This document shows, in pieces, positions 1-13,136 of a stretch of DNA of 64,000 bases. A program made the position numbers and the translations under genes. Location of the stretch: positions 59,566 through 123,565 of the forward strand of contig CAWICQ010000001.1 of assembly GCA_963834755.1 (NCBI GenBank), given 5' to 3'. The notes under the pieces were generated by a model. It saw nothing but the letters and a program-made list of their open reading frames with translations, searched no databases and was not told where the DNA came from. The stretch comes from an uncultured Gammaproteobacteria bacterium. GTDB lineage: Bacteria > Pseudomonadota > Gammaproteobacteria > Xanthomonadales > Rhodanobacteraceae. How positions within the stretch are numbered: the stretch's first letter is position 1; each line of letters starts with the position of its first letter.

Positions 1-450
1 GTCACGGAAATAGCTGTAAAACGTGTACGTCCACGGACTTTCGGGTTTGCCGTCCTTGCCGCGCCGGTAGATCGACAATGGATCGATCGTCGTGCCGTTG
101 GCACCGATGCGATCCATGTTGCCGACGTGATGGCGCAGGTGGACGTGGTGGTAGAACTCCTGCGAAAAACCGTCGGTCAGCGACAGGACGAAACTGTAGA
201 TGCGGTTCAGCGCCGGCGAAACGAAGAACGCGTTGTGGATGAAGTTGTGGCTGACCGAGTTGATGCTCCACGAGATGCTGATTGAATAGACCAGCGCCAG
301 CGGAACCCAGATGACCCATGGCGTCGCGTGGAAACCGAAGAACAGGAACGCGACGAAAGCGAGATGGCCCAGGCCCATCAGCACCGGAATCAGGTCCCAC
401 GGCGTGTGCGCGAAGACGCCGGGCCGGGTTGTCGTGGCATGCGGATTCAT
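1..450 (-). CDS. Membrane fatty acid desaturase family protein, N-terminal part (runs off the window edge)
   Basis: Manual translation from ATG at 450: MNPHATTTRPGVFAHTPWDLIPVLMGLG...SHNFIHN...FYHHVHLRHHVGN. It has hydrophobic helices and two His boxes. Not in the ORF track because it is open-ended. Confidence 0.8.
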   Translation of the reverse strand, partial: MNPHATTTRPGVFAHTPWDLIPVLMGLGHLAFVAFLFFGFHATPWVIWVPLALVYSISISWSINSVSHNFIHNAFFVSPALNRIYSFVLSLTDGFSQEFYHHVHLRHHVGNMDRIGANGTTIDPLSIYRRGKDGKPESPWTYTFYSYFRD

Positions 451-809
451 GAAGCCTTGTTGTGGGCGATTCTCGACGTAAGCCGTCTTGGTGCAAGCGA
501 TTTCGATGTAGGCGATTTCGACGCGAGCGGTGATGCTCGATCAAGCCAGTATCTTAGCGCTTTCGCGCAACCGGCCGTTGCAGCCTAGGCAGGCCGTCTT
601 TCGCACCGCTTTCGATGTGGCGAGGCGGATTTTGCGGCCTCCGGGGCCCGCGATGCCGCATCCGCCATGTCTGCTGGTACGATTTGCGCCGCCGGGTGCC
701 CGCGGCCGGGAAGGAGGCGGGGCACCGAGCGGCTGCGAAAGGGCCGCGAAAGACACTCAAAGCTACGATTTTCATTGTTCGGCCGATGCCGACGGATAAG
801 GATCCCTGC

Positions 810-1508
810 GTGTCCAACTGGACCATTCTCTGCGATTTCGACGGCACCGTTTCCGTCGAGGACATCACCGACTCGCTGCTCGAGCGCTTCGCGCGTCCCG
901 GCTGGCAAAAAATCGAGCAGGCGTGGCGGCGCGGCGAAATCGGTTCGCACGATTGCATGGCCGAACAGGTCGCGCTGTTCGACGCCAGCCGCGAGGAAAT
1001 CGACGAGCATCTGGACAGCATGATGATCGATCGCGCGTTCCCGGCGTTCGTGGTCGAGGTCGAAGCGGCGGGAATTCCGCTCGCGATCGTCAGCGACGGA
1101 CTCGACTACGCGATACGACGCATCCTCGACAGTCACGGCCTCGGCCGTCTGCCGATCATCGCGAACCGGCTCGAAACCACCGGACCGCGCAGCTGGCGAC
1201 TCGATTTCCCGCACGGAAGTCCCAGCTGCCGCATCGCCAGCGGCAACTGCAAGTGCGCGTGCGCGGGCAGCGCGCGCGACGCGCAGCGGCGCGTGCTGCT
1301 GATCGGCGACGGCGCGTCGGATTTCTGCGTCGCCGGCGAGGCGGATCTGGTTTTCGCCAAGCACCGGCTGATCGAGCATTGCCGTTCCGCCGGGATCGCC
1401 TACGTGCCGGTCACCGGATTCGCCGACGCGCTCGATCTCCTCCCGACGCTGCTTGCGGGCGAGCTCGCCGCGCACGTCGTCCCGCTGGAACAGCCGGCGC
1501 CGGCCTGA
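810..1508 (+). CDS. HAD-IB family phosphatase (MtnX-like)
   Basis: DFDGT motif I and GDGASD motif IV; GTG start 7 nt after a TAAGGA RBS. Confidence 0.85.
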   Translation: MSNWTILCDFDGTVSVEDITDSLLERFARPGWQKIEQAWRRGEIGSHDCMAEQVALFDASREEIDEHLDSMMIDRAFPAFVVEVEAAGIPLAIVSDGLDYAIRRILDSHGLGRLPIIANRLETTGPRSWRLDFPHGSPSCRIASGNCKCACAGSARDAQRRVLLIGDGASDFCVAGEADLVFAKHRLIEHCRSAGIAYVPVTGFADALDLLPTLLAGELAAHVVPLEQPAPA

Positions 1509-1599
1509 CCGGCGCCCGCACCACCTCGAAGTTCGAGCCGACGTTTCGCGCCGAGCCGGCGCGTATCACAATGCACGCCGACGCGTGGAGTGGAATCCG

Positions 1600-3018
1600 A
1601 TGAATTACGACATCTCCCGGCAGAAGACCCTGCCGGTCAGCGACGCGGAACTTCTCGCCGACGAGGCGCGCTACTGCTCGTTCGGCGACACCGTGCATTA
1701 CTCGGAGCCGCCGAAGATCTTCACGCGCTGCGAAGGCAGCTATCTCTACGACGCGGCCGGCACGCCATTCCTCGATCTGCAGATGTGGTATTCCGCGGTC
1801 AACTTCGGTTACGCGAACCCGCGCCTCAACCACGCGCTGAAGCAACAGGTCGACACGCTGCCGCAGGTCGCGAGCCAATACCTGCATCCGACCAAGATCG
1901 AGCTTGCCAAGATCATCGGCCAGGACGCGGAAAAGAAATGGGGCAATCGCGGCCGCGTGCACTTCAATGTCGGCGGATCGCAGTCGGTCGAAGACTCGCT
2001 CAAGCTCGTGCGCAACGCCTCGAACGGCAAGAGCCTCGTGTTTGCGTTCGAGGGCGGCTATCACGGACGCACGCTGGGCGCGTCGGCGATCACGTCTTCG
2101 TATCGTTACCGTCGCCGCTACGGGCATTTCGATCGCGCGCAATTCGTCGAATTTCCGTATCACTTCCGTGCTTCGAAGAGCCTCGGCTCGAAAGGCATGT
2201 CGAAGGAGGAATACGGCGAATACTGCGTCGCAAAATTCGAGCGCCTGTTCGAAACCGAATACAACGGCGTCTGGGATCCCAAGGCCGGGCAGTGCGAATA
2301 CGCCGCGTTCTATGTCGAGCCGATTCAGGGTACCGGCGGCTATGTGATTCCGCCGCCGAATTTTTTCAGCGGCCTGAAACGTGTGCTGGACAAGTACGGC
2401 ATCCTGCTCGTCGTCGACGAAATCCAGATGGGTTTCTTCCGCACCGGCAAGCTGTGGTCGATCGAGCATTTTGGCGTGAAGCCCGACGTGCTCGTGTTCG
2501 GCAAAGCACTCACCAACGGCCTCAATCCGCTCGCCGGCATCTGGGCGCGCGAGGAGCTGATCAATCCGACGGTATTTCCGCCGGGCTCGACGCATTCGAC
2601 GTTCGCGTCGAATCCACTCGGCACGGCCGTCGGTCTCGAAACGATGAAGATGTTGGCCGAAACGGATTACTCGTCGATGGTGATGCGCAAGGGCGCGCAC
2701 TTTCTCGACGGCCTGCGCGATCTGCAGAAGCGCCATCCGGAAATCGGCGATGTCGACGGTCTCGGTCTCGCGCTGCGCGCGGAGATCTGCGAGGCGGACG
2801 GCTTCACGCCGAACAAAAAGCTGCTCGATCGCATGGCCGATATCGGCCTTGCCGGACAGCTGGATGACGGTGGCGAGAAAGTCGGCCTCGTGCTCGATGT
2901 CGGCGGCTATTACAAGAACGTGATCACGCTGGCGCCGTCGCTGCATATCAGCGATGAGGAAATCGACCGCGGCCTGCGTCTGCTCGATCAGCTGTTGACG
3001 CGCGCCAAGAAGGCCTGA
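1600..3018 (+). CDS. Class III PLP-dependent aminotransferase
   Basis: VDEIQMGFFRTG and FGKALTNG (PLP lysine), GYHGRT, HSTFASNPL. Confidence 0.9.
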   Translation: MNYDISRQKTLPVSDAELLADEARYCSFGDTVHYSEPPKIFTRCEGSYLYDAAGTPFLDLQMWYSAVNFGYANPRLNHALKQQVDTLPQVASQYLHPTKIELAKIIGQDAEKKWGNRGRVHFNVGGSQSVEDSLKLVRNASNGKSLVFAFEGGYHGRTLGASAITSSYRYRRRYGHFDRAQFVEFPYHFRASKSLGSKGMSKEEYGEYCVAKFERLFETEYNGVWDPKAGQCEYAAFYVEPIQGTGGYVIPPPNFFSGLKRVLDKYGILLVVDEIQMGFFRTGKLWSIEHFGVKPDVLVFGKALTNGLNPLAGIWAREELINPTVFPPGSTHSTFASNPLGTAVGLETMKMLAETDYSSMVMRKGAHFLDGLRDLQKRHPEIGDVDGLGLALRAEICEADGFTPNKKLLDRMADIGLAGQLDDGGEKVGLVLDVGGYYKNVITLAPSLHISDEEIDRGLRLLDQLLTRAKKA

Positions 3019-3028
3019 CGACACGAGA

Positions 3029-3054
3029 GAACGCCTGCCGATCGGCGGGCGTTC
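3029..3054. terminator. Stem-loop between convergent genes, putative bidirectional terminator
   Basis: GAACGCCTGCCG-AT-CGGCGGGCGTTC hairpin just after the aminotransferase stop; weak U-tract. Confidence 0.5.
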
Positions 3055-3072
3055 CGTGTTGCAGATCGGGGA

Positions 3073-3387
3073 TCAACGATCCCAGCGGCCGTCGTAGTAG
3101 CGCCAGCGATGGCCTTCGTGCTCCCAGCGCGACGGCACCCAGTGATAGCCGTGGCGCTCATGCACCCAATGGCCCTTGTGCCATACGTGCCTATGTCCGC
3201 CCCAACCCCAGTAGCCATTGATCCAAACGTAACCCGCACGCGGACCGGGAACAGCCTCGACGCGGAGGGCAGGGGGCTCGACATCGGCATAAATGATGGT
3301 GCGCGCCAGGGCTTGATGGCTACCCAAGGCACCCAGGCCGCCGATCGCCACCGCGGCACCCAACAGCAGTTTGTTCAGCGCTTGCAT
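3073..3387 (-). CDS. Secreted YXWGXW-repeat protein
   Basis: Signal peptide, then PPALRVEAVPGPRAGYVWINGYWGW...WHKGHW...WVPSRW...YYDGRW. Confidence 0.85.
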   Translation of the reverse strand: MQALNKLLLGAAVAIGGLGALGSHQALARTIIYADVEPPALRVEAVPGPRAGYVWINGYWGWGGHRHVWHKGHWVHERHGYHWVPSRWEHEGHRWRYYDGRWDR

Positions 3388-3505
3388 CGTTGCCTCCGTA
3401 TGGCGCTCGGAGAGCGCCCTCAGGGGATGCTACGCTAGCCAACGCGCACTGAATGATCGCCAAGCACGTTCATGGAAATGCCGCGTCCACGCGTCGCGAG
3501 CTGAA

Positions 3506-3850
3506 TCAGTTCTTCCCGGCCGAATAGCCGGCGCAGAATGCCGGTGGGTTGGTTTCGATCATCGCGCATCCGCGTTTGATTTCGTCGATGACGAGCTCGC
3601 ACGAATTCGACGCATTGCATGGCGGATGCGTTGCCGGCGAAACCGCAAGACACTGTTGCACGTACTCGTCGGCTTTCTTCGCGCCGGCGCTCTTGCTGCA
3701 CGGGACGTCAGCCGGGGTCTGCGTGGGCGCAGATGCGTTCGGGACAGACGCGGCTGCATGCGCGGCCGCGCTGTCTTTCGGGACGTCATTCGATCGCGCG
3801 CTCGCCAATGAGCACGCGGCGAGTGCAACAGTGACAAGCATGCGATGCAT
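3506..3850 (-). CDS. Small secreted Cys-rich hypothetical protein
   Basis: GAGGA RBS, signal peptide, Ala/Pro linker and a six-Cys C-terminal domain (CLAVSPATHPPCNASNSC...GC...FC). Confidence 0.7.
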   Translation of the reverse strand: MHRMLVTVALAACSLASARSNDVPKDSAAAHAAASVPNASAPTQTPADVPCSKSAGAKKADEYVQQCLAVSPATHPPCNASNSCELVIDEIKRGCAMIETNPPAFCAGYSAGKN

Positions 3851-3872
3851 GGGTGTCCTCTGCGAATACGCC

Positions 3873-5087
3873 TTACGGTGCGCGCCGCAGCGCGAGCACG
3901 GCGTTGAGTCCACCGAACGCGAACGAATTGCTGAGCGCGACGCGCACCGGTTTTTCGCGCGCCGCGTTTGGCACGTAGTCGAGATCGCACTCGGGATCAG
4001 GGTCGATGAAGTTCGCCGTCGGTGGGATCACGCCGTCGCGCAATGCGCCGATCACTGCGACGAGCTCGATCGCGCCCGCCGCGCCGAGCGCGTGACCGTG
4101 CATCGATTTCGTCGACGACACCGCGAGCGCATCGGCGTGCGCGCCGAACGTACGCCGGATCGCGCGCGACTCAGTCGGATCGTTGGCCGGCGTGCCGGTG
4201 CCGTGCGCGTTGATGTAGTCGACTTTTTCGGGCGTGATTCCGCCGTCGTCGAGTGCGCGCCGCATCGCCATCGCCGCACCGGCCTCTGACGGAAACACGA
4301 TATCGCCGGCGTCGGCCGACATGCCCGCGCCGGCGATCTCGGCGAGAATATTCGCGCCACGCGCGTGCGCGCGATCGAGCGTTTCCAGCACGAACGCCGC
4401 GGCGCCTTCGCCCAGCACGAGGCCGCGGCGCTGCTTGCAAAATGGTCGGCAGGTGTCGTCGGCGAGCACGCGCATCGCTTCCCAAGCACGTATCGCGCCG
4501 AGCGTCAGGCAGGCTTCGGTACCGCCGGTCACGGCCGCATCGGCAACGCCGCTGCGCACCATGTGGAAGGCCTGCGCAATCGCATGGTTCGACGAGGCGC
4601 ACGCGCTGACCGTCGCGAACGCCGGTCCATGCAATTTGTGTTCGATGCTGACGTGACAGGCCGGCGCGTTCGCCATCAGGCGCACGATCGTCAGCGGATG
4701 CAGGCGCGGATTGTTCTCGGCGTACATGCGCCGCGATGCTTCGTCGTTCGTGTTCTCGCCGCCGATGCCGGTGCCGATCACGACCGCAGTGTTGTCCCCC
4801 AGACTGTCACGCATGAAATCGATGCCGGATTGCGCGATCGCCTCGCGCGCGGCGACGAGCGCGAGCTGCGAGACGCGATCGAGCAGGATCAGGCGTTTCT
4901 CGTCGAAGTGCTTCAGCGGATCGAAATCGCGCACTTCGGCGGCGATGCCGAAGCGCAACGCATCGCGCGGCAGGCAGGTGATCGGACCGATCGCCGAGCG
5001 GCCTTCGCGCAGCGCGCCCCACGTCGCGGCTGCCGTGTGCCCGAGCGGCGTGACCGCACCCATGCCGGTGACAACGACGCGATGCAT
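3873..5087 (-). CDS. Beta-ketoacyl-ACP synthase II family, NodE-like
   Basis: Catalytic SACASSNHA, INAHGTGT and KSMHGHALG. The segment MRVLADDTCRPF...LVLGEGA resembles rhizobial NodE from memory. Confidence 0.9.
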   Translation of the reverse strand: MHRVVVTGMGAVTPLGHTAAATWGALREGRSAIGPITCLPRDALRFGIAAEVRDFDPLKHFDEKRLILLDRVSQLALVAAREAIAQSGIDFMRDSLGDNTAVVIGTGIGGENTNDEASRRMYAENNPRLHPLTIVRLMANAPACHVSIEHKLHGPAFATVSACASSNHAIAQAFHMVRSGVADAAVTGGTEACLTLGAIRAWEAMRVLADDTCRPFCKQRRGLVLGEGAAAFVLETLDRAHARGANILAEIAGAGMSADAGDIVFPSEAGAAMAMRRALDDGGITPEKVDYINAHGTGTPANDPTESRAIRRTFGAHADALAVSSTKSMHGHALGAAGAIELVAVIGALRDGVIPPTANFIDPDPECDLDYVPNAAREKPVRVALSNSFAFGGLNAVLALRRAP

Positions 5088-5112
5088 CCTCGATTCCGTC
5101 GTGCAAGGAGAC

Positions 5113-5376
5113 TCAGGCCGCCGGAGGCTTGGCGCCTTGCGCGGCGACGAGCTTCTCGACCGTTTCGATGAGCCCCTTGACGGACTCGGTGTCGAAATTC
5201 GGATCGCGGTCCGGCATCGTGATCTTGAAGTGGTCCTCGATCTCGAAAAGGATCTGCACGGCGTCGAGCGACTGGATTTCCAGATCCTTCAATGTCGCCT
5301 CGGGCGTGATCTTCGCGCGATCGATCCCGGATTCCTTGGCGATGATGTCGAAGATGGTTTCCTGCACACTGCTCAT
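5113..5376 (-). CDS. Acyl carrier protein (NodF-like)
   Basis: 87 aa, acidic, phosphopantetheine Ser in LEIQSLDAVQILFEIED; adjacent to the KAS. Confidence 0.9.
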   Translation of the reverse strand: MSSVQETIFDIIAKESGIDRAKITPEATLKDLEIQSLDAVQILFEIEDHFKITMPDRDPNFDTESVKGLIETVEKLVAAQGAKPPAA

Positions 5377-5442
5377 GAAACGATTCCCTTACGAAAGTGT
5401 TCCGACGTTCGTCGCCGGGCGCGTCGCGGTCCGGCGGCGTCG

Positions 5443-5862
5443 CTAATCTTCGCCCCGTCCCGCCGCGGCCGGCGTAGCCGCGGGGTGGTCCGGGCCAAGC
5501 AGCAGGACGCCCGCGACAATCATCGCCGAGCCGACGAGTTTGAGCCAGCCCACCGGCTCATCGAACAGCCAGCGCGAGGCGATCATCAACACGATCAATA
5601 CGATGGCGCCGGTCGGAAACGCGCTCGACAGCGACGACTGGCGCAGGATCACCATCCAGGCCAGGAATTCGCCGACATAGCAGGCGACCGCGGTCCACAG
5701 CCACGCGGACGACACGGCGGCCGCGAATGCGTGCGGTGAAAAATCAAACGGACCGGTATCGAGCCCGGCATATTTGAGAGAGATCTGACACAGAGCGCCG
5801 AGCGCAAGCAGGATCACCCAGCTCGCCAGAACCGTCGTGCGCGAGTAGGCTGCGCGCGTCAC
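5443..5862 (-). CDS. Small DMT/EamA membrane protein (ArnF-like)
   Basis: GTG start overlaps the GNAT stop (GTGA). Four TM helices; LSSAFP and GSAMIVAGVLLLG. Confidence 0.8.
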   Translation of the reverse strand: MTRAAYSRTTVLASWVILLALGALCQISLKYAGLDTGPFDFSPHAFAAAVSSAWLWTAVACYVGEFLAWMVILRQSSLSSAFPTGAIVLIVLMIASRWLFDEPVGWLKLVGSAMIVAGVLLLGPDHPAATPAAAGRGED

Positions 5863-6983
5863 AAGCTCGCCGCCGGCGGCAGCGCGGTGTTCGAGGCGTC
5901 GAGAGTGAAGACGCGCTCGACCGCGGCGAACACACGATCGACGATGCGGTTGCGATGGCGATACCAGAGCCAGTTCGGCGCGAGACGGCTGCCGAGTCGC
6001 GTTTTTTCGCGCTCGAGACCCTGGCCGCTCTGGTAGCGGACGAGGCCGTGCTCGATGCAGTAGCGAACGTTTTCCATCCAGCTCAGATAATAAAGGTTGT
6101 GCGCGCGGCCGAGCGCATAGTCCATGCCGAAGAACTTGTCGAGCAGGTAGCGCCGATTGTGCAGGATCAGGTTGAAGCCGATCAGTTGCTGGCCAAGCCA
6201 GTACGTCGAGCATAGCGCGCGTCCGCGCAGGTCGCGCATCACGCCGCTGAAGTATTCGGGTGTCAACTCTTCGAAGCGGTATTCTGCCTGCGACAGCGTT
6301 GCGCGATAAAGCGCCATGATCGGATCGATGAGATCGTCGATGTCGCTGCGCCATTCGACGCGCACGTCGGCGCGCGCGCGGAGCTTCCGGCGCATGTCCT
6401 TGCGGGTCGCGGGACCCAGCGAAGCGAGATAGTCGTCGAGCGAGCGGAACGGCAGTTCGAGCAATGCGGTCGACTGGCCCGGCATGCGCCGCAGTCCGGC
6501 GCGGCCGCACGCATCGGTCCACAGCGCGTCGTCGGCGCCGCGCGCGTCCTTGACCGCGACCATGCCGATGCGTCGTTGTGCGGCGAAGTCGAGCAGCTTG
6601 TCGAGCAGTCTTGCGGCAAGACGCCGCCGTTCGTCTTCATCGCAATCGGCCGCAAAGCCGAGATGGCAGATTTCTCCCACCGGCGATCCGAGCGATGCGA
6701 GCGGAATGCCGAGCAATCGCGGCGCGACGCGCGCGACCGCGCCGGTCACGCGTTTCAGCGGGCCCGACAGTGTCGTATCGATGCGATAATCGGTAACGAA
6801 ACCCGGCACCGCGGCGCGCAGCCGGCCGTGTTCCCACACCGCGAGATAGATCCATTCGAAGCCGGCCAGTGCGGCATTTTCGACTGCGCGGTAGTAGAAC
6901 CAGTCCTCGATCTCGTCCGCGAACAGGGCATTCCATTCTTCGCGGTCGAATGCCTCGATCGATCGGGCGACAATCGCTTCCAT
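5859..6983 (-). CDS. GNAT-fold acyltransferase, FemAB-like / Acetyltransf_6 type
   Basis: FRSLDDYLASL...TRKDMRRKLR, YYLSWMENVRYCIEHGL..YQSGQG..K.RLG; coupled by TGATG overlap. Confidence 0.75.
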   Translation of the reverse strand: MEAIVARSIEAFDREEWNALFADEIEDWFYYRAVENAALAGFEWIYLAVWEHGRLRAAVPGFVTDYRIDTTLSGPLKRVTGAVARVAPRLLGIPLASLGSPVGEICHLGFAADCDEDERRRLAARLLDKLLDFAAQRRIGMVAVKDARGADDALWTDACGRAGLRRMPGQSTALLELPFRSLDDYLASLGPATRKDMRRKLRARADVRVEWRSDIDDLIDPIMALYRATLSQAEYRFEELTPEYFSGVMRDLRGRALCSTYWLGQQLIGFNLILHNRRYLLDKFFGMDYALGRAHNLYYLSWMENVRYCIEHGLVRYQSGQGLEREKTRLGSRLAPNWLWYRHRNRIVDRVFAAVERVFTLDASNTALPPAASL

Positions 6984-7840
6984 CACTCGATCGCGGCTGC
7001 GATCGCTGCGCCCGGCTCGCGCATCGGCTCGGCTTCGGCGATGCGGCGGAAGAATTCGGCGGATCGCTCGATCAGCTCGCCGCGTTGACGATCGACGGTG
7101 ACCATGTGATAGCTGTCGTCGAGCAGCACAGTTTCGACCGGCGCGCGCGTGCCGCGTTCGACGATGCGCACGTTGCGCAGGCTCGCGATGTCGTCGTCGG
7201 ACGAATGCACGATCACGCTCGGCGCGCGCACGCGACCGATGCGGTTGCGCACGTGCAGCGACAGGCTCTGGAATTCAGCGAGCGAAGGCCACGGAAAGCC
7301 GGCGAGGCCGCCGGCCTGGCTGTCGCCCGACAGCATCGCGCTGACGATGCGGTTGCGGATGCGTTCGTCCTTGATACCGTACGGCGGATTTTCCATCGAA
7401 ATCTGCTTGCGCCCGATGCCGAGACGCATGCCCAGCGGCAACAGGAATGCAAAGCGGCCGATCAGCGGCGTGGCCCAGCCGTCGTGGAAGAACGTCGTGC
7501 CGTAGAGACCGAGGCCGTCGACTTCGCGCGGTCGATCGATCGCGAGCTTCAGCGCGAGCACCGCGCCCATCGAAAGGCCGGCGACGAAGAGATGATCGAC
7601 CTGTTCCTGCAGGCGTTCGGCCGCGGCGACGACGCTTGCGTACCAGTCGCGCCAGCCGGTCGCCAGAAGATCGGCTTCGTCGCCGCAATGTCCGGCGAGC
7701 TGCAAGCCGAGCACGGTGAATCCCGCGCGATTGAGGCCATTGCCGACGAAACGCATCTCCGTCGGTGTGCCGGTCAATCCGTGGATCAGCAACACGCCGG
7801 AGCGGCCGCCACGTAGATGGAATTCGGAAGGCTTGATCAT
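6983..7840 (-). CDS. Alpha/beta hydrolase (carboxylesterase/lipase-like)
   Basis: HGLTG oxyanion motif, GLSMG nucleophile elbow, SDDD acid, SYHM His. Confidence 0.9.
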   Translation of the reverse strand: MIKPSEFHLRGGRSGVLLIHGLTGTPTEMRFVGNGLNRAGFTVLGLQLAGHCGDEADLLATGWRDWYASVVAAAERLQEQVDHLFVAGLSMGAVLALKLAIDRPREVDGLGLYGTTFFHDGWATPLIGRFAFLLPLGMRLGIGRKQISMENPPYGIKDERIRNRIVSAMLSGDSQAGGLAGFPWPSLAEFQSLSLHVRNRIGRVRAPSVIVHSSDDDIASLRNVRIVERGTRAPVETVLLDDSYHMVTVDRQRGELIERSAEFFRRIAEAEPMREPGAAIAAAIE

Positions 7841-7842
7841 GC

Positions 7843-8208
7843 TCAGGCGGTCGGCCAGCAGACGATCGCGACGCCGGCCGCGACGACCAGTGTCGCGGCC
7901 CAGCGTTGCGCGGAAATGTGCTCGTGCAGAATCAGCCGGCTCGCGACCACGACGCCGCAATACGACAGCGCCGCGAACGGCACGGCGAGACTCAGCGGCG
8001 CGAGCGTGAGCGCTCCGAACCAGAACACGAATTCAAGCGCGTAGATGACAACGCCGAGTGCGATCCACGGCGAGCGCACGAGGCTGGCGAGGAAGCCCGC
8101 GATGCCGCCGGCATTCGATCCACCATCGTCGTGCACGCCGATCTTGAAGCAGATCTGCCCGCCGATATCGCACAGCACGGAGCCGGCGAGGAATGCGAAC
8201 ATCAGCAT
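7843..8208 (-). CDS. Small DMT/EamA membrane protein (ArnE-like)
   Basis: 121 aa, four TM helices; GQICFKIG, APLSLAVPF, LILHEHIS. Confidence 0.8.
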   Translation of the reverse strand: MLMFAFLAGSVLCDIGGQICFKIGVHDDGGSNAGGIAGFLASLVRSPWIALGVVIYALEFVFWFGALTLAPLSLAVPFAALSYCGVVVASRLILHEHISAQRWAATLVVAAGVAIVCWPTA

Positions 8209-9125
8209 GACCGAGCTCCCGCGATCGCAGCGAGCAGTGCGCGATTGACGCGTTCGTTGTCCTCGAGGCGTGCCGCCGCAACGTCGGTGCGATGCGGCTG
8301 GTCGAAGCGCGCTTCCCAGCGCTTGAATGGATTCGCGTGCACCAGCGGCGCATATTCGCCGCAGATGTCGGCGCCGATCACGCGCCGTTGGGCGACGGTC
8401 GCGCGCACGAAGCGCAGCAGCGCGTCGAGCGGCATCTGTCCCTGGTCCCAGTTGGTCACCACTTCGCTCTCCGGCAACACGTCCTTGTCGACGCTGATCC
8501 AGACCGCCTGGGTCGGTATCGCGGCGATCATCGCGGAAATAGCTTCATCGAGATCCCTTTCGCACAGGTTTCGCCAGTAAATATAGCCCTTGGCGTAGCG
8601 GTGGGCGGGGCCATCCGCGATTCGGTGCCAGATTCTCGATGGGGCATGCTGCCATGGATACAAGACGAGACGCCCGGAATCCAGCGCAGCGACATTGCCG
8701 CCCTTGAGGCCCGGATTGACAAGGTCGTCGCTGCAAGGGCCGAGCGTGATCGCGCGCGCGAGCAAGGGCAGCGTTAGCGTTCGATTCATCCAGGATCCGC
8801 AGTGCCAGCGCGGCGCGAAGCGCACCCAATCCGGGTGATTGTCGAAATGCACGAGCGTGAATGGTTCTCGAATGCGTTCGTGCAGCAACGCGGCGACGTG
8901 ATGGAAATCGCCCGAGCCGAGCAGCGTGATCGTCGATTCGATCTCGGCACCGGTCTGGATGAGTCGTTGGCGTGTTTGCGCGATTGTCGTGCCGCGCGAC
9001 CAGAGTCGCAGGCGCGGGCCGATGTCGCGCAGATCGATCGTGCGCGTCGATTGCCAGGGCGCGACGTCGCCGAGCGATGACTGAGCGGTCAGCGAACCAT
9101 CGAGATCGAATATCTGAAGATGCAT
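8202..9125 (-). CDS. Arginase/ureohydrolase-fold metalloenzyme
   Basis: GSGDFHH, HFDNHPD and ISVDKDVL match ureohydrolase metal motifs; first gene of a translationally coupled operon. Confidence 0.75.
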   Translation of the reverse strand: MHLQIFDLDGSLTAQSSLGDVAPWQSTRTIDLRDIGPRLRLWSRGTTIAQTRQRLIQTGAEIESTITLLGSGDFHHVAALLHERIREPFTLVHFDNHPDWVRFAPRWHCGSWMNRTLTLPLLARAITLGPCSDDLVNPGLKGGNVAALDSGRLVLYPWQHAPSRIWHRIADGPAHRYAKGYIYWRNLCERDLDEAISAMIAAIPTQAVWISVDKDVLPESEVVTNWDQGQMPLDALLRFVRATVAQRRVIGADICGEYAPLVHANPFKRWEARFDQPHRTDVAAARLEDNERVNRALLAAIAGARSC

Positions 9126-9228: not shown

Positions 9229-10053
9229 TCAGTCGTCGTCGTTCGGCACTGAAACCTTGCCGCGCACATTGCGGTGCTCGATGTCGCCCGAGCCTTTGGC
9301 ACCGACGCGGAAATTGCCGTTGACGCCGTCGACGTGGACATCGCCCGAGCCGATCGACTCGACCGTCACGTCGTTGGCCGCGTCGGTGACGGATACATCG
9401 CCCGAACCGACGTCGCCGATGCTGACGCTACCGACGGTATCGAAGACCAGGTCGCCCGAGCCCGAGCGCGCGACGCCGACGGGCCCGTGCACGTCGCGCA
9501 GCGAAATGTCGCCGGAAGACGTTCCGCGAACGTCGACGCTGCCGATGTCCTCGCCGCGTACGTCGCCGGAGCTGACTTGGACGGCAAGCGTGCCGGCGAT
9601 GTGGTCGGCAACGAGATCGCCCGAGCTCGCAGCGAAATCGAGCGCCGCGATGTTTCTCGCCTGGACGTCACCCGACTGCGCCTTGATCGAAGCCGCGAGT
9701 TTGGTCGGCACGCGAACGCGAACGTCCACATAGGCGTAGTTCGAACCCGACCAGCTGCCGTGAAGGTCGTGGCCATTGTGCGGCGTGATGTCGACGCGAT
9801 CGCCGCTGCGATGCTGGTCGATGGTCAATTGATCGAGCCAGGCCGGCTCTGATGCGCAGGCGCGCCCGCGGACTTCGACCTGTGCGAGTCCGGGCACGCC
9901 TTCGATGACGAGATCGCTTGACCCGAGATCGAAGGCGACCGTGTTGAGACCCGCGGCCGGGACGTCGAAATTGCGATCGGCGGAGTAGCGACATTCGGCG
10001 CCCGCGGTGGCGGGCAGGAGGGCGAGCAGGAACAGACTGGACAAGCGCGGCAT
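9229..10053 (-). CDS. Secreted beta-strand repeat protein (DUF4097/adhesin-like)
   Basis: Signal peptide followed by many (S)SGD(L/V/I) beta-solenoid repeats. Confidence 0.8.
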   Translation of the reverse strand: MPRLSSLFLLALLPATAGAECRYSADRNFDVPAAGLNTVAFDLGSSDLVIEGVPGLAQVEVRGRACASEPAWLDQLTIDQHRSGDRVDITPHNGHDLHGSWSGSNYAYVDVRVRVPTKLAASIKAQSGDVQARNIAALDFAASSGDLVADHIAGTLAVQVSSGDVRGEDIGSVDVRGTSSGDISLRDVHGPVGVARSGSGDLVFDTVGSVSIGDVGSGDVSVTDAANDVTVESIGSGDVHVDGVNGNFRVGAKGSGDIEHRNVRGKVSVPNDDD

Positions 10054-11933: not shown

Positions 11934-13136
11934 ATGAACATCCTGATGCTGTCCGACGTCTATTTCCCCCGCGTCAACGGTGTGTCGACATCGATGCAGA
12001 CGTTCTGCCGCGAGCTCGTCGGATTCGGCCATCACGTCACCATCGTTGCACCGGACTATGGCATCCCCGACGACGACTCGGAATTCGAAATAGTCCGGCT
12101 GCCGTCGCGCCGCATCTTCTTCGATCCGGAAGATCGGCTGATCAGGAAATCCGCGGCGCGCAAGATCGTGTCGGAGCTGGCGCGCAGATCCTGGGACGTC
12201 ATTCATATCCACACGCCGTTTCGCGCACATCAGATCGGCGTCGAACTCGCGCGAAGGACCGCTCGGCCGACCGTGGAGAGCTATCACACCTATTTCGAGG
12301 AATACGTCGCCAATTATCTGCCGTGGTTTCCGCCGAAGGTGCTGCGGTTTTTCGTCCGGCGATTTTCGCGCCGTCTGTGCGAAAGCGTCGATCATCTGAT
12401 CGTGCCTACGACCGAAATGGCGGACGTGCTGCGCAGCTACGGCATCGGCACGGCGTCGACCGTGGTTCCGACCGGAATTCGCCTCGAAGAGTTTGCGCGT
12501 GGAGATGCCGCGCGCTTTCGCCATGCGCACGGTTTCGGCGCGGCACAGCTTCTGCTGCTTACTGTGAGCCGGCTCGCGATCGAGAAGAACATCGACTTCC
12601 TGCTCGAAGTCGCCCGGATTCTCAAGAGCGAATTCGATGACTTCGTCTTCGTCATCGCAGGCGAGGGCCCCGACGCGCCGCGTCTCGGCCGCTTGACGCG
12701 AGCGCTCGGGCTCGACAAGCACGTGCGTTTTCTCGGCAATCTCGATCGATATACGACGCTGGTCGATTGCTACAGCGCCGCCGACGTTTTCATGTTTGCG
12801 TCCAGCACCGAGACGCAAGGACTGGTGCTGATCGAAGCGATGGCCTGTGGCGCCCCGATCGTCTCGACGGCCGTGATGGGCACGGCGACCGTGCTGCGCG
12901 ATACTCGCAGCGCGTTGATCAGCGAGGGCCGCGTCGAGGTCTTCGCAGCCAATGTCGCCAGATTGCTGCGCTCGCCCGAGGAGCGCGCCGCGCTATCGGC
13001 TTGCGGCCCGCTCGACGCGGAAAAATGGAGCGCTGGCGCGTTGATGCGCAAAGTGATCGGAATGTACGAGCATTTGGTGAAGTCGCGTTCGAGCGAAACG
13101 CCACATGTTGCAGTCGAGGCGTCGCCCGCGGCTTGA
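11934..13136 (+). CDS. Glycosyltransferase family 4 (diacylglycerol glycosyltransferase-like)
   Basis: SDVYFPRVNGV, HIHTPF, SYHTYFEEY, EKNID, ETQGLVLIEAMACG. Confidence 0.9.
   Translation: MNILMLSDVYFPRVNGVSTSMQTFCRELVGFGHHVTIVAPDYGIPDDDSEFEIVRLPSRRIFFDPEDRLIRKSAARKIVSELARRSWDVIHIHTPFRAHQIGVELARRTARPTVESYHTYFEEYVANYLPWFPPKVLRFFVRRFSRRLCESVDHLIVPTTEMADVLRSYGIGTASTVVPTGIRLEEFARGDAARFRHAHGFGAAQLLLLTVSRLAIEKNIDFLLEVARILKSEFDDFVFVIAGEGPDAPRLGRLTRALGLDKHVRFLGNLDRYTTLVDCYSAADVFMFASSTETQGLVLIEAMACGAPIVSTAVMGTATVLRDTRSALISEGRVEVFAANVARLLRSPEERAALSACGPLDAEKWSAGALMRKVIGMYEHLVKSRSSETPHVAVEASPAA

Follow-up and report, generated by a model that had tools for sequence, protein, structure and literature searches.

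A conserved gene cassette of Pseudomonadota that may build and move outward a cationic, amine-bearing membrane amphiphile

Gene content and layout of the locus

The window analyzed here is a stretch of 64,000 nt (C1:59566-123565 of a 4.05-Mb genome in 14 contigs, about 65% GC), whose nearest relatives are metagenome-assembled genomes (MAGs) of the Rhodanobacteraceae. At its left end lies a group of genes in which amine chemistry, lipid enzymes and export are joined, an association that had been noticed from the sequence before (here called the original prediction) and that its conservation in other genomes supports. We refer to the conserved set as the cassette.

Seven of the genes form an operon on the minus strand. 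In the order of reading, they encode a divergent ureohydrolase (ARG, 8202-9125), a half-size drug/metabolite transporter (DMT) protein (EamA1, 7843-8208), an alpha/beta hydrolase (ABH, 6983-7840; PF12146 and PF00561), a tandem GNAT of the FemAB_like/Acetyltransf_6 type (GNAT, 5859-6986), a second half-size DMT protein with about four transmembrane segments (EamA2, 5443-5862), a dedicated acyl carrier protein (ACP, 5113-5376; PF00550, E = 2.5e-9) and a paralogue of beta-ketoacyl-ACP synthase II (KAS, 3873-5087; PF00109, PF02801 and the fabF model at 456 bits). Convergent with this operon, on the plus strand, are the genes of an MtnX-like HAD-IB phosphatase (HAD, 786-1508) and of an atypical class III pyridoxal-phosphate (PLP) enzyme (AT3, 1600-3018). 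A membrane fatty-acid desaturase/hydroxylase-family gene is divergent from HAD. Its 5' part alone is in the window (1-450, minus strand), and the full gene extends to C1:59098 (305 aa; PF00487, E = 3e-22).

The operon is tightly packed. ARG overlaps EamA1 by 7 nt, EamA1 and ABH are 2 nt apart, and GTGA overlaps join ABH to GNAT and GNAT to EamA2; four of the six junctions thus overlap or almost touch. The gaps are 66 nt between EamA2 and ACP, 25 nt between ACP and KAS, and 22 nt between KAS and the small lipoprotein gene beyond it. The genes, their strands and order, the convergent and divergent arrangement, and the translational coupling of most of the operon agree with the original prediction in the Pfam and NCBIfam comparisons. 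The high GC content gives rise to abundant spurious open reading frames (ORFs); genes were selected by GC at codon positions and then confirmed with Pfam and NCBIfam, while the motifs of HAD, KAS, ACP and ABH, the junctions and the lipobox were taken directly from the sequence or ORF coordinates. Promoter and terminator scans of the window gave signals no stronger than those in shuffled sequences.

Distribution and core of the cassette

The order ARG-EamA1-ABH-GNAT-EamA2-ACP-KAS is retained in about 18 loci of Lysobacterales, with identity down to 50%, which bears out the idea that the genes belong together. In these loci HAD and AT3 are always near (1-6 kb off), and frequently the desaturase as well. 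Elsewhere the order is shuffled, and the same set is found in at least eight genera whose GC content ranges from 34 to 71%; the carriers named below were identified by exact look-up of their proteins. The core, a co-inherited set, consists of HAD, AT3, ABH, the two EamA halves and GNAT. In Stenotrophomonas maltophilia (L061) the genes run ABH-EamA-EamA and, further on, HAD-AT3-GNAT-ARG. In Frateuria terrea (L062), HAD-AT3-ACP-KAS-GNAT-ARG faces EamA-EamA-ABH; in Roseateles (L063), AT3-GNAT-ARG faces EamA-EamA-ABH-HAD; and in Gilliamella apicola (L064, 34% GC), HAD-ABH-EamA-EamA faces ARG-GNAT-AT3. Lysobacterales 69-70 (L066) has a cassette with ACP and KAS, and Mesorhizobium (L068) has HAD-AT3-ARG-EamA-ABH. 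Pseudomonas poae (L052) has HAD-AT3-ABH-GNAT and, on another contig, a second GNAT-ARG pair; a MipA gene is divergent from its operon. In a 1.9-Mb genome (G269) the order is regulator-kinase-HAD-AT3-DUF4337-ARG-EamA-desaturase-ABH-GNAT-desaturase-EamA-MipA. The whole cassette is here in a single operon (L053, G269:C1, about 754400-765300, 47% GC), with an OmpR-type regulator and a 2CSK_N-domain kinase (a PmrB/QseC-type two-component system) in front of it and MipA as its last gene.

Co-inheritance was also seen in a phylogenetic profile of 401 Pseudomonadota genomes. An AT3 ortholog is present in 26 and a GNAT homologue in 25 of them; 23 have both, three AT3 alone and two GNAT alone (Fisher's exact p = 5e-32). 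The cassette thus occurs in about 6% of the Pseudomonadota sampled, and its GNAT is carried by nearly all genomes of the window's genus. ARG belongs to most gammaproteobacterial versions. Of the 25 genomes with GNAT, 14 also have ARG, namely, the window's, 11 other Gammaproteobacteria, G269 and a Mesorhizobium (G287). It directly adjoins GNAT in seven loci (L057, L061-L064, L066 and L093).

These comparisons redraw the boundaries of the cluster as first described. HAD and AT3, described in the original prediction as a pair on which the operon converges, belong to the core and are its most constant members: HAD is in every version, and AT3 adjoins it in nearly all loci. Conversely, most versions lack ACP, KAS and the desaturase, among them those of Stenotrophomonas, Roseateles, Gilliamella, Mesorhizobium and P. 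poae. ACP and KAS accompany the cassette in the window's relatives, in Frateuria and in Lysobacterales 69-70. The ACP/KAS pair and the desaturase are therefore lineage-specific, recurrent accessories. An amino-sugar lipid had been named as one possible product; it is unsupported, since the conserved set has no sugar-pathway gene.

The proteins of the cassette differ in their rate of change. Of the 25 other genomes that bear an AT3 ortholog, all except two show 67-84% identity in this protein, across Gamma- and Alphaproteobacteria, compared with 43-64% for HAD and ABH and 29-46% for ARG and GNAT among distant genomes. A macromolecular partner that constrains AT3, or its horizontal spread in recent times, may account for this slow evolution.

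The GNAT transferase

GNAT scores above the cut-offs of two Fem-like families (PF04339, 44.4 bits against 27; PF13480, 41.4 bits against 22) and is a member of both. Aligned by hhalign with the canonical COG3146 proteins of related genomes, it matches over 365 columns with a probability of 99.7% (E = 8e-26). The cassette GNATs nevertheless form a divergent branch, scoring 37-67 bits on the FemAB_like model vs 475 bits for the canonical paralogue of the same genome. That paralogue (C12:513187-514290, minus strand) is also present in nearly all relatives. The canonical family is itself a function orphan, a pterin-related prediction for it having been invalidated (PMC3223725). AlpO of the argolaphos pathway, a peptide pathway, is another COG3146 member.

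The AlphaFold2 (AF2) model of GNAT has a pLDDT of 88. In a Foldseek search its best matches were Sbb17/Sba18, FemA, FemX and the C-terminal domain of MprF (E about 1e-12, TM about 0.55), and the modeled fold is thus the tandem-GNAT fold of aminoacyl-tRNA-dependent transferases. The likeness is not visible in the sequence. Neither GNAT nor its family profile has any match in the PDB. PF09924 (LPG_synthase_C) is matched by none of 13 family members, at E <= 1 for ten of them and at E <= 0.01 for the three that are fusions, and PF02388 (FemAB) by one of the 13 only at E = 0.14, which does not place GNAT in that family. Alignment by hhalign with the MprF C-terminal domains of same-genus genomes gave a probability of 0.5%, i.e., no similarity.

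Beyond the two Fem-like families, the next Pfam match, where there is one, is usually ATE_C, and it is in register. ATE_C is the domain of arginyl-tRNA-protein transferases, with a Pfam cut-off of 25 bits. Four family members match it, at 27.4 (above the cut-off), 23.3, 16.1 and 12.3 bits; the 27.4-bit match comes from a genome of the same genus, with an ABH that shares 84% identity with the window's. The hhalign comparison with the Bpt/ATE proteins of related genomes gave a local P of 4e-4 over 182 columns, with a probability of 34%. The ATE_C and Bpt signals hint at arginine as the amino acid that GNAT may transfer.

The family falls into two subtypes, about 30-37% identical to each other; an RKxxRRKLR helix and a DK(F/Y)xG...NLY..SW motif are common to both. 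In another genome of the window's genus (L093, G403:C427), an ABH 84% identical to that of the window is followed by a GNAT (36% identity) and an ARG (33% identity), both of the other subtype, which indicates that the GNAT/ARG module has been swapped between subtypes within one genus.

The ureohydrolase and its fusions with the transferase

ARG is a ureohydrolase by its PF00491 score (24 bits against a cut-off of 22) and by the presence of all six ligands of the binuclear metal center. Sixteen close and eight distant orthologues, from Gilliamella to Mesorhizobium, all have the motifs GSGDxHH, DNHPD and DKD without change, and GxDxxG(E/D) and the family-specific TNWDQG are likewise invariant across taxa; the alignment across taxa comprised nine sequences. 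The sequence finds only marginal matches in the PDB. The AF2 model (pLDDT 80.6) matches ureohydrolases only among the top 50 Foldseek results (TM 0.42-0.55), with proclavaminate amidinohydrolase best and guanidinopropionase, agmatinase, guanidinase, metformin hydrolase and arginase also among the top folds. ARG is accordingly predicted, from motifs and model, to hydrolyze a guanidino group with release of urea. It has no match to PF12640, the OspR-like peptide arginase family, at E <= 0.01. Membership in a selidamide-type or other pathway of peptides made on the ribosome and modified after translation (RiPPs) was considered and rejected, as there is also no precursor or LanM-type gene in the conserved set, where small ORFs were not searched exhaustively.

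GNAT is fused to its neighbors in other lineages. About 45 of its 120 nearest homologues are single GNAT-EamA2 polypeptides, the EamA half being about 135 aa long; in one of them (P0040), residues 379-505 are 54% identical to EamA2 of the window. An exhaustive profile search for ARG, with 1,092 representative clusters at E <= 1e-10, brought out GNAT-ARG fusions in three separate clusters at 50% identity (P0303, P0324 and P0328; 666-725 aa). In all three the FemAB_like/Acetyltransf_6 part is N-terminal and the ARG domain C-terminal, with all motifs intact. An apparent ARG-EamA fusion (P0344) was excluded from the counts, as it seems to come from a frameshift in the gene call. Taken together, the fusions suggest that GNAT, ARG and the half-transporters are neighbors at the membrane, and that the action of ARG, fused to GNAT or adjoining it, directly precedes or follows that of GNAT. 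This is a closer role than that of the remote head-group tailoring enzyme envisaged in the original prediction.

The aminotransferase, the phosphatase and the hydrolase

AT3 belongs to the class III PLP enzymes (PF00202, E = 1e-75, 255 bits), and the lysine that forms the Schiff base is kept in VFGKALTNG, aligned with the lysine region of GabT. The residues that form the glutamate/2-oxoglutarate switch in Escherichia coli GabT, E211 and R398, are both replaced by threonine in AT3 (EPIQGTGG and KNVITLAPSL). After a retained active-site arginine comes an insertion, ITSSYRYRRRYGHF, that is absent from GabT. Both replacements and the RYRRR insertion are invariant in all seven distant orthologues checked. 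The best NCBIfam and PDB matches of AT3 include putrescine, gamma-aminobutyrate (GABA) and polyamine transaminases. An arginine-rich loop at the entrance of the active site, with a constant HAD-IB partner, suggests that the substrate of AT3 is phosphorylated; possibly, it is instead bound to a carrier protein.

HAD belongs to the MtnX-like HAD-IB subfamily (TIGR01489, 87.7 bits against a cut-off of 81.55; also PF12710), with the motifs DFDGT and GDGASD. Its closest solved structure is MtnX (2fea, E = 1e-17). It falls below the MtnX equivalog (100.8 vs 292 bits), and no methionine-salvage genes are adjacent to it. For ABH, whose nucleophile elbow is GLSMG, the closest solved structures are LipS, a bacterial monoacylglycerol lipase and Est30 (E = 1e-27 to 1e-18).

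The transporter pair, the accessory genes and the neighbors

Both half-size proteins resemble ArnE and ArnF. EamA1 (PF00892, 29.1 bits against a cut-off of 28.2) scores 32.4 bits with ArnF and 26.2 with ArnE, and EamA2 (EamA, E = 1e-3) scores 31.7 with ArnF. The cut-offs of the ArnE and ArnF models are 92-99 bits, and neither half can be called an Arn flippase subunit on this basis. ArnA, ArnB, ArnC, ArnD and ArnT are absent from the conserved neighborhood of the cassette.

Among the accessories, KAS scores 437 bits with PRK07314, over the cut-off, and has the Cys-His-His motifs ACASS, HGTGT and HGHALG. ACP stays under every NCBIfam ACP cut-off; the serine of its attachment motif lies in QSLD. 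The desaturase has the histidine boxes HNFIH, HLRHH and HAEHH. Its gene adjoins HAD in six loci (L003, L004, L007, L014, L019 and L021), and occurs twice inside the G269 operon; the versions of Stenotrophomonas, Roseateles, Gilliamella and Mesorhizobium lack it.

Two small genes past KAS, on the same strand, had been overlooked. One encodes a predicted lipoprotein (3506-3850, minus strand; lipobox LAAC) without a Pfam match, which has a counterpart in one relative only (L003). The other encodes a small secreted WXXGXW-repeat protein (3073-3387, minus strand; PF12779, E = 2e-7), is syntenic in five close relatives (L003-L006 and L010), and may end the unit, though in close relatives only. A gene about 100 nt upstream of ARG and on its strand (9229-10050) encodes a secreted protein with a DUF4097/GIN ("toastrack") domain and is syntenic in L004, L005 and L021 only. 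A GT4 glycosyltransferase gene does lie at 11.9 kb (11934-13136), as first reported, but it is outside the conserved set; its synteny is limited to one relative (L004), and it was ruled out as a member of the cluster. To the left of position 1, the completed desaturase gene is followed by another (C1:56137-59064, minus strand) whose secreted product is large, at about 950 aa, and to the eye resembles a peptidase of the sedolisin/S53 type with repeats in its C-terminal part. There are no tRNA genes within the first 20 kb of the window.

A proposed pathway and its alternatives

We propose that the locus represents, in the form found in one lineage, a widespread system of two modules by which a cationic, amine-bearing membrane amphiphile is produced and then transferred out of the cytoplasmic leaflet. 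We put the probability of this reading at about 0.4. Module A (AT3, HAD and ABH) would convert a phosphorylated carbonyl precursor to a lipid or lipid-like primary amine, and in the window's genome the private KAS/ACP pair and the desaturase would supply or tailor the acyl chain. Module B would act at the inner face of the membrane, where GNAT would move an amino acid, likeliest arginine from Arg-tRNA, onto the amine. ARG would then strip urea, turning the arginyl group into an ornithyl group. We know of no tRNA that is charged with ornithine, so that ornithine could not be delivered directly. Finally, an EamA1/EamA2 heterodimer would flip or export the product in the manner of ArnE/ArnF and of the flippase domain of MprF. 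ABH could alternatively be a turnover esterase or amidase of the kind that accompanies aminoacyl-lipid synthases. That the product is a lipid finds supporting evidence in the desaturase, the KAS/ACP pair, the monoacylglycerol-lipase-like ABH, the ArnE/F-like pair, and the PmrB/QseC-type and MipA flanks in G269. A more specific version is that the system carries out tRNA-dependent lipid aminoacylation as a split analogue of MprF, in which a COG3146-type synthase is docked on or fused to a heterodimeric DMT flippase and works with a membrane-associated lipid arginase. We offer this version tentatively and consider it rather doubtful as a whole.

A number of observations weigh against the proposal. 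Every chemical step in it is inferred, and the roles of HAD and ABH are its least certain part. The tandem-GNAT fold is no proof of tRNA use: 2wpw, a tandem GNAT of clavulanate synthesis that binds acetyl-CoA, matches the GNAT fold equally well, and the bacterial ceramide synthase, of the PF13480 type, takes acyl-CoA. Both profile signals, ATE_C and Bpt, are weak, with a single match over the cut-off, and a dedicated tRNA or a paralogue of an aminoacyl-tRNA synthetase was not found nearby. ARG is lacking in 11 of the 25 sampled genomes with GNAT, so the step from arginine to ornithine cannot be universal, and the GNAT-ARG fusions are equally compatible with the reverse order, de-amidination followed by acylation. 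Pairs of SMR/DMT proteins with four transmembrane segments also export soluble cations. Lastly, the recruitment of KAS and ACP is left unexplained, and its recurrence favors N-acylation.

N-acylation from acyl-ACP was the reaction assigned to GNAT in the original prediction. As a donor acyl-ACP stands as an option, while the fold and the ATE_C matches favor an aminoacyl-tRNA. Refined in the light of the present data, the N-acylation pathway would have ARG de-amidinate a guanidino precursor, GNAT N-acylate the amine so formed with a chain from acyl-ACP or acyl-CoA, as the ceramide synthase and the selidamide GNATs use, and the EamA pair export the product; KAS would assemble the chain on the private ACP, and the desaturase would modify it. 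The genes of these three proteins belong to the operon or adjoin it in the window, in Frateuria and in Lysobacterales 69-70. The GNAT-ARG fusions and the presence of 2wpw among the top folds are in line with such a pathway. There is also a precedent in selidamide biosynthesis, in which an arginase acts first and a GNAT then fatty-acylates the new ornithine (PMC8784127). However, a dedicated ACP/KAS is missing from the majority of cassettes, the best GNAT folds other than 2wpw are all tRNA-dependent, and no GNAT member falls in the acyl-CoA N-acyltransferase families of Pfam, whereas four match ATE_C. Nor is a source of the guanidino lipid precursor encoded, and ARG lies outside the peptide-arginase family. 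The choice of aminoacylation over N-acylation is thus based on the fold neighbors, the ATE_C hints and the many cassettes without ACP/KAS, and we regard N-acylation as on balance unlikely. No spt-like (class II) gene is in the conserved neighborhood, and the sgaAB sphingolipid polyketide synthase of Pseudomonas fluorescens is unrelated.

Two other readings place the product elsewhere. It could be a cationic group linked to polyprenyl phosphate, or to lipid A or lipopolysaccharide (LPS), with which the outer membrane is decorated as by Arn or AlmEFG, the EamA pair flipping a carrier-linked intermediate. ArnF and ArnE are indeed the best-scoring models for both EamA halves, and the OmpR-type regulator, 2CSK_N kinase and MipA of G269, as well as the divergent MipA of P. 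poae, would suit an envelope target of this kind. But the scores of 26-32 bits are far from the cut-offs, the conserved set has no glycosyltransferase and no ArnT-like, ArnC-like or LpxL/AlmG-like enzyme, and no periplasmic enzyme is encoded that would attach the group to lipid A, which makes this reading improbable. Equally hard to credit is a soluble product, a modified polyamine, guanidino compound or aminoacyl-amine exported in the way the SMR-type pair MdtJI exports spermidine, with the lipid genes unrelated or providing a short acyl unit. Such a product would agree with the matches of AT3 to putrescine, GABA and polyamine transaminases, with agmatinase and guanidinopropionase among the folds of ARG, and with the Sbb17-type Fem-like enzymes, which aminoacylate a soluble amino sugar. 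Against it, GNAT is fused to a membrane protein in many lineages, the lipase-type ABH is constant, the desaturase is found twice within the G269 operon, the KAS/ACP pair recurs in separate lineages, and AT3 lacks the residues that canonical omega-amino-acid transaminases use.

Possible significance

If the aminoacylated-amphiphile reading is right, a common modification of the bacterial surface charge has been overlooked so far. Among the carriers are Stenotrophomonas maltophilia, Gilliamella (a symbiont of the bee gut), plant-associated Pseudomonas and Mesorhizobium, and most of the window's Rhodanobacteraceae genus; cationic lipids of this sort usually govern tolerance of cationic peptides, acid and host defenses. 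A branch of the orphan COG3146/FemAB_like family would gain its first function, and a ureohydrolase would be seen to act on a lipid, the first "lipid arginase". Cationic lipids of the ornithine type would then be made without OlsBA or OlsF. The reading would also explain a class III PLP enzyme without the usual residues for keto-acid recognition.

Comparison with known systems

No description of a gene set with a FemAB_like GNAT, a ureohydrolase, EamA proteins and a HAD-IB phosphatase was found in the literature, in agreement with the failure of the original prediction to match it to a named pathway. The parts are of known families and their logic is like that of MprF, but the combination matches no described pathway. 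The nearest homologues of GNAT, the canonical FemAB_like proteins (PF04339/COG3146), are similar over the full length, but the cassette GNAT has a specific gene neighborhood of its own.

In clavulanate synthesis a ureohydrolase unmasks an amine. The cassette may share this principle, a guanidino group serving as a masked amine that a ureohydrolase reveals, with proclavaminate amidinohydrolase and with the selidamides, which employ an OspR-like arginase and a GNAT (PMC8784127). It differs in having no precursor peptide, LanM or beta-lactam genes, and in an ARG that is not of the PF12640 type. With the Arn pathway the cassette has in common two adjacent half-size DMT/SMR-like proteins, an aminotransferase and an envelope setting. 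Its aminotransferase, however, is of class III and not of the DegT/ArnB type, and equivalents of ArnA, ArnC, ArnD and ArnT are absent.

The best fold matches of GNAT, Sbb17/Sba18 (streptothricin-type) and FemX/FemA, join an amino acid carried by a tRNA to the amine of a substrate through an amide bond, the type of reaction that we propose for GNAT. Their context is antibiotic or peptidoglycan synthesis, whereas the cassette appears to belong to the membrane lipids, and GNAT is related to them neither through PF02388 nor through a sequence match in the PDB.

The likeness is broadest with MprF and the aminoacyl-phosphatidylglycerol synthases. The window's genome has a separate MprF-type gene (PF09924; C9:418937-419816), which is split over two frames; the copies in the same genus are intact (about 822-825 aa), and the split may be due to a frameshift, to decay into a pseudogene or to faulty assembly. 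A gene of the OlsB type was not found in this genome. The cassette is without PF09924, and its translocator is a pair of EamA proteins of about four transmembrane segments each instead of the multi-helix flippase domain of MprF. The PLP enzyme, the HAD phosphatase and the ureohydrolase are additional to what MprF requires, and from these additions the acceptor is probably a purpose-built amine and not phosphatidylglycerol. MprF-type synthases can have a partner alpha/beta hydrolase, as in PA0920/PA0919. In spite of the differences, the two systems share the tandem-GNAT fold, the coupling of transferase and translocator, at times by fusion, and a co-encoded alpha/beta hydrolase, and their common outcome is likely to be a cationic membrane lipid.

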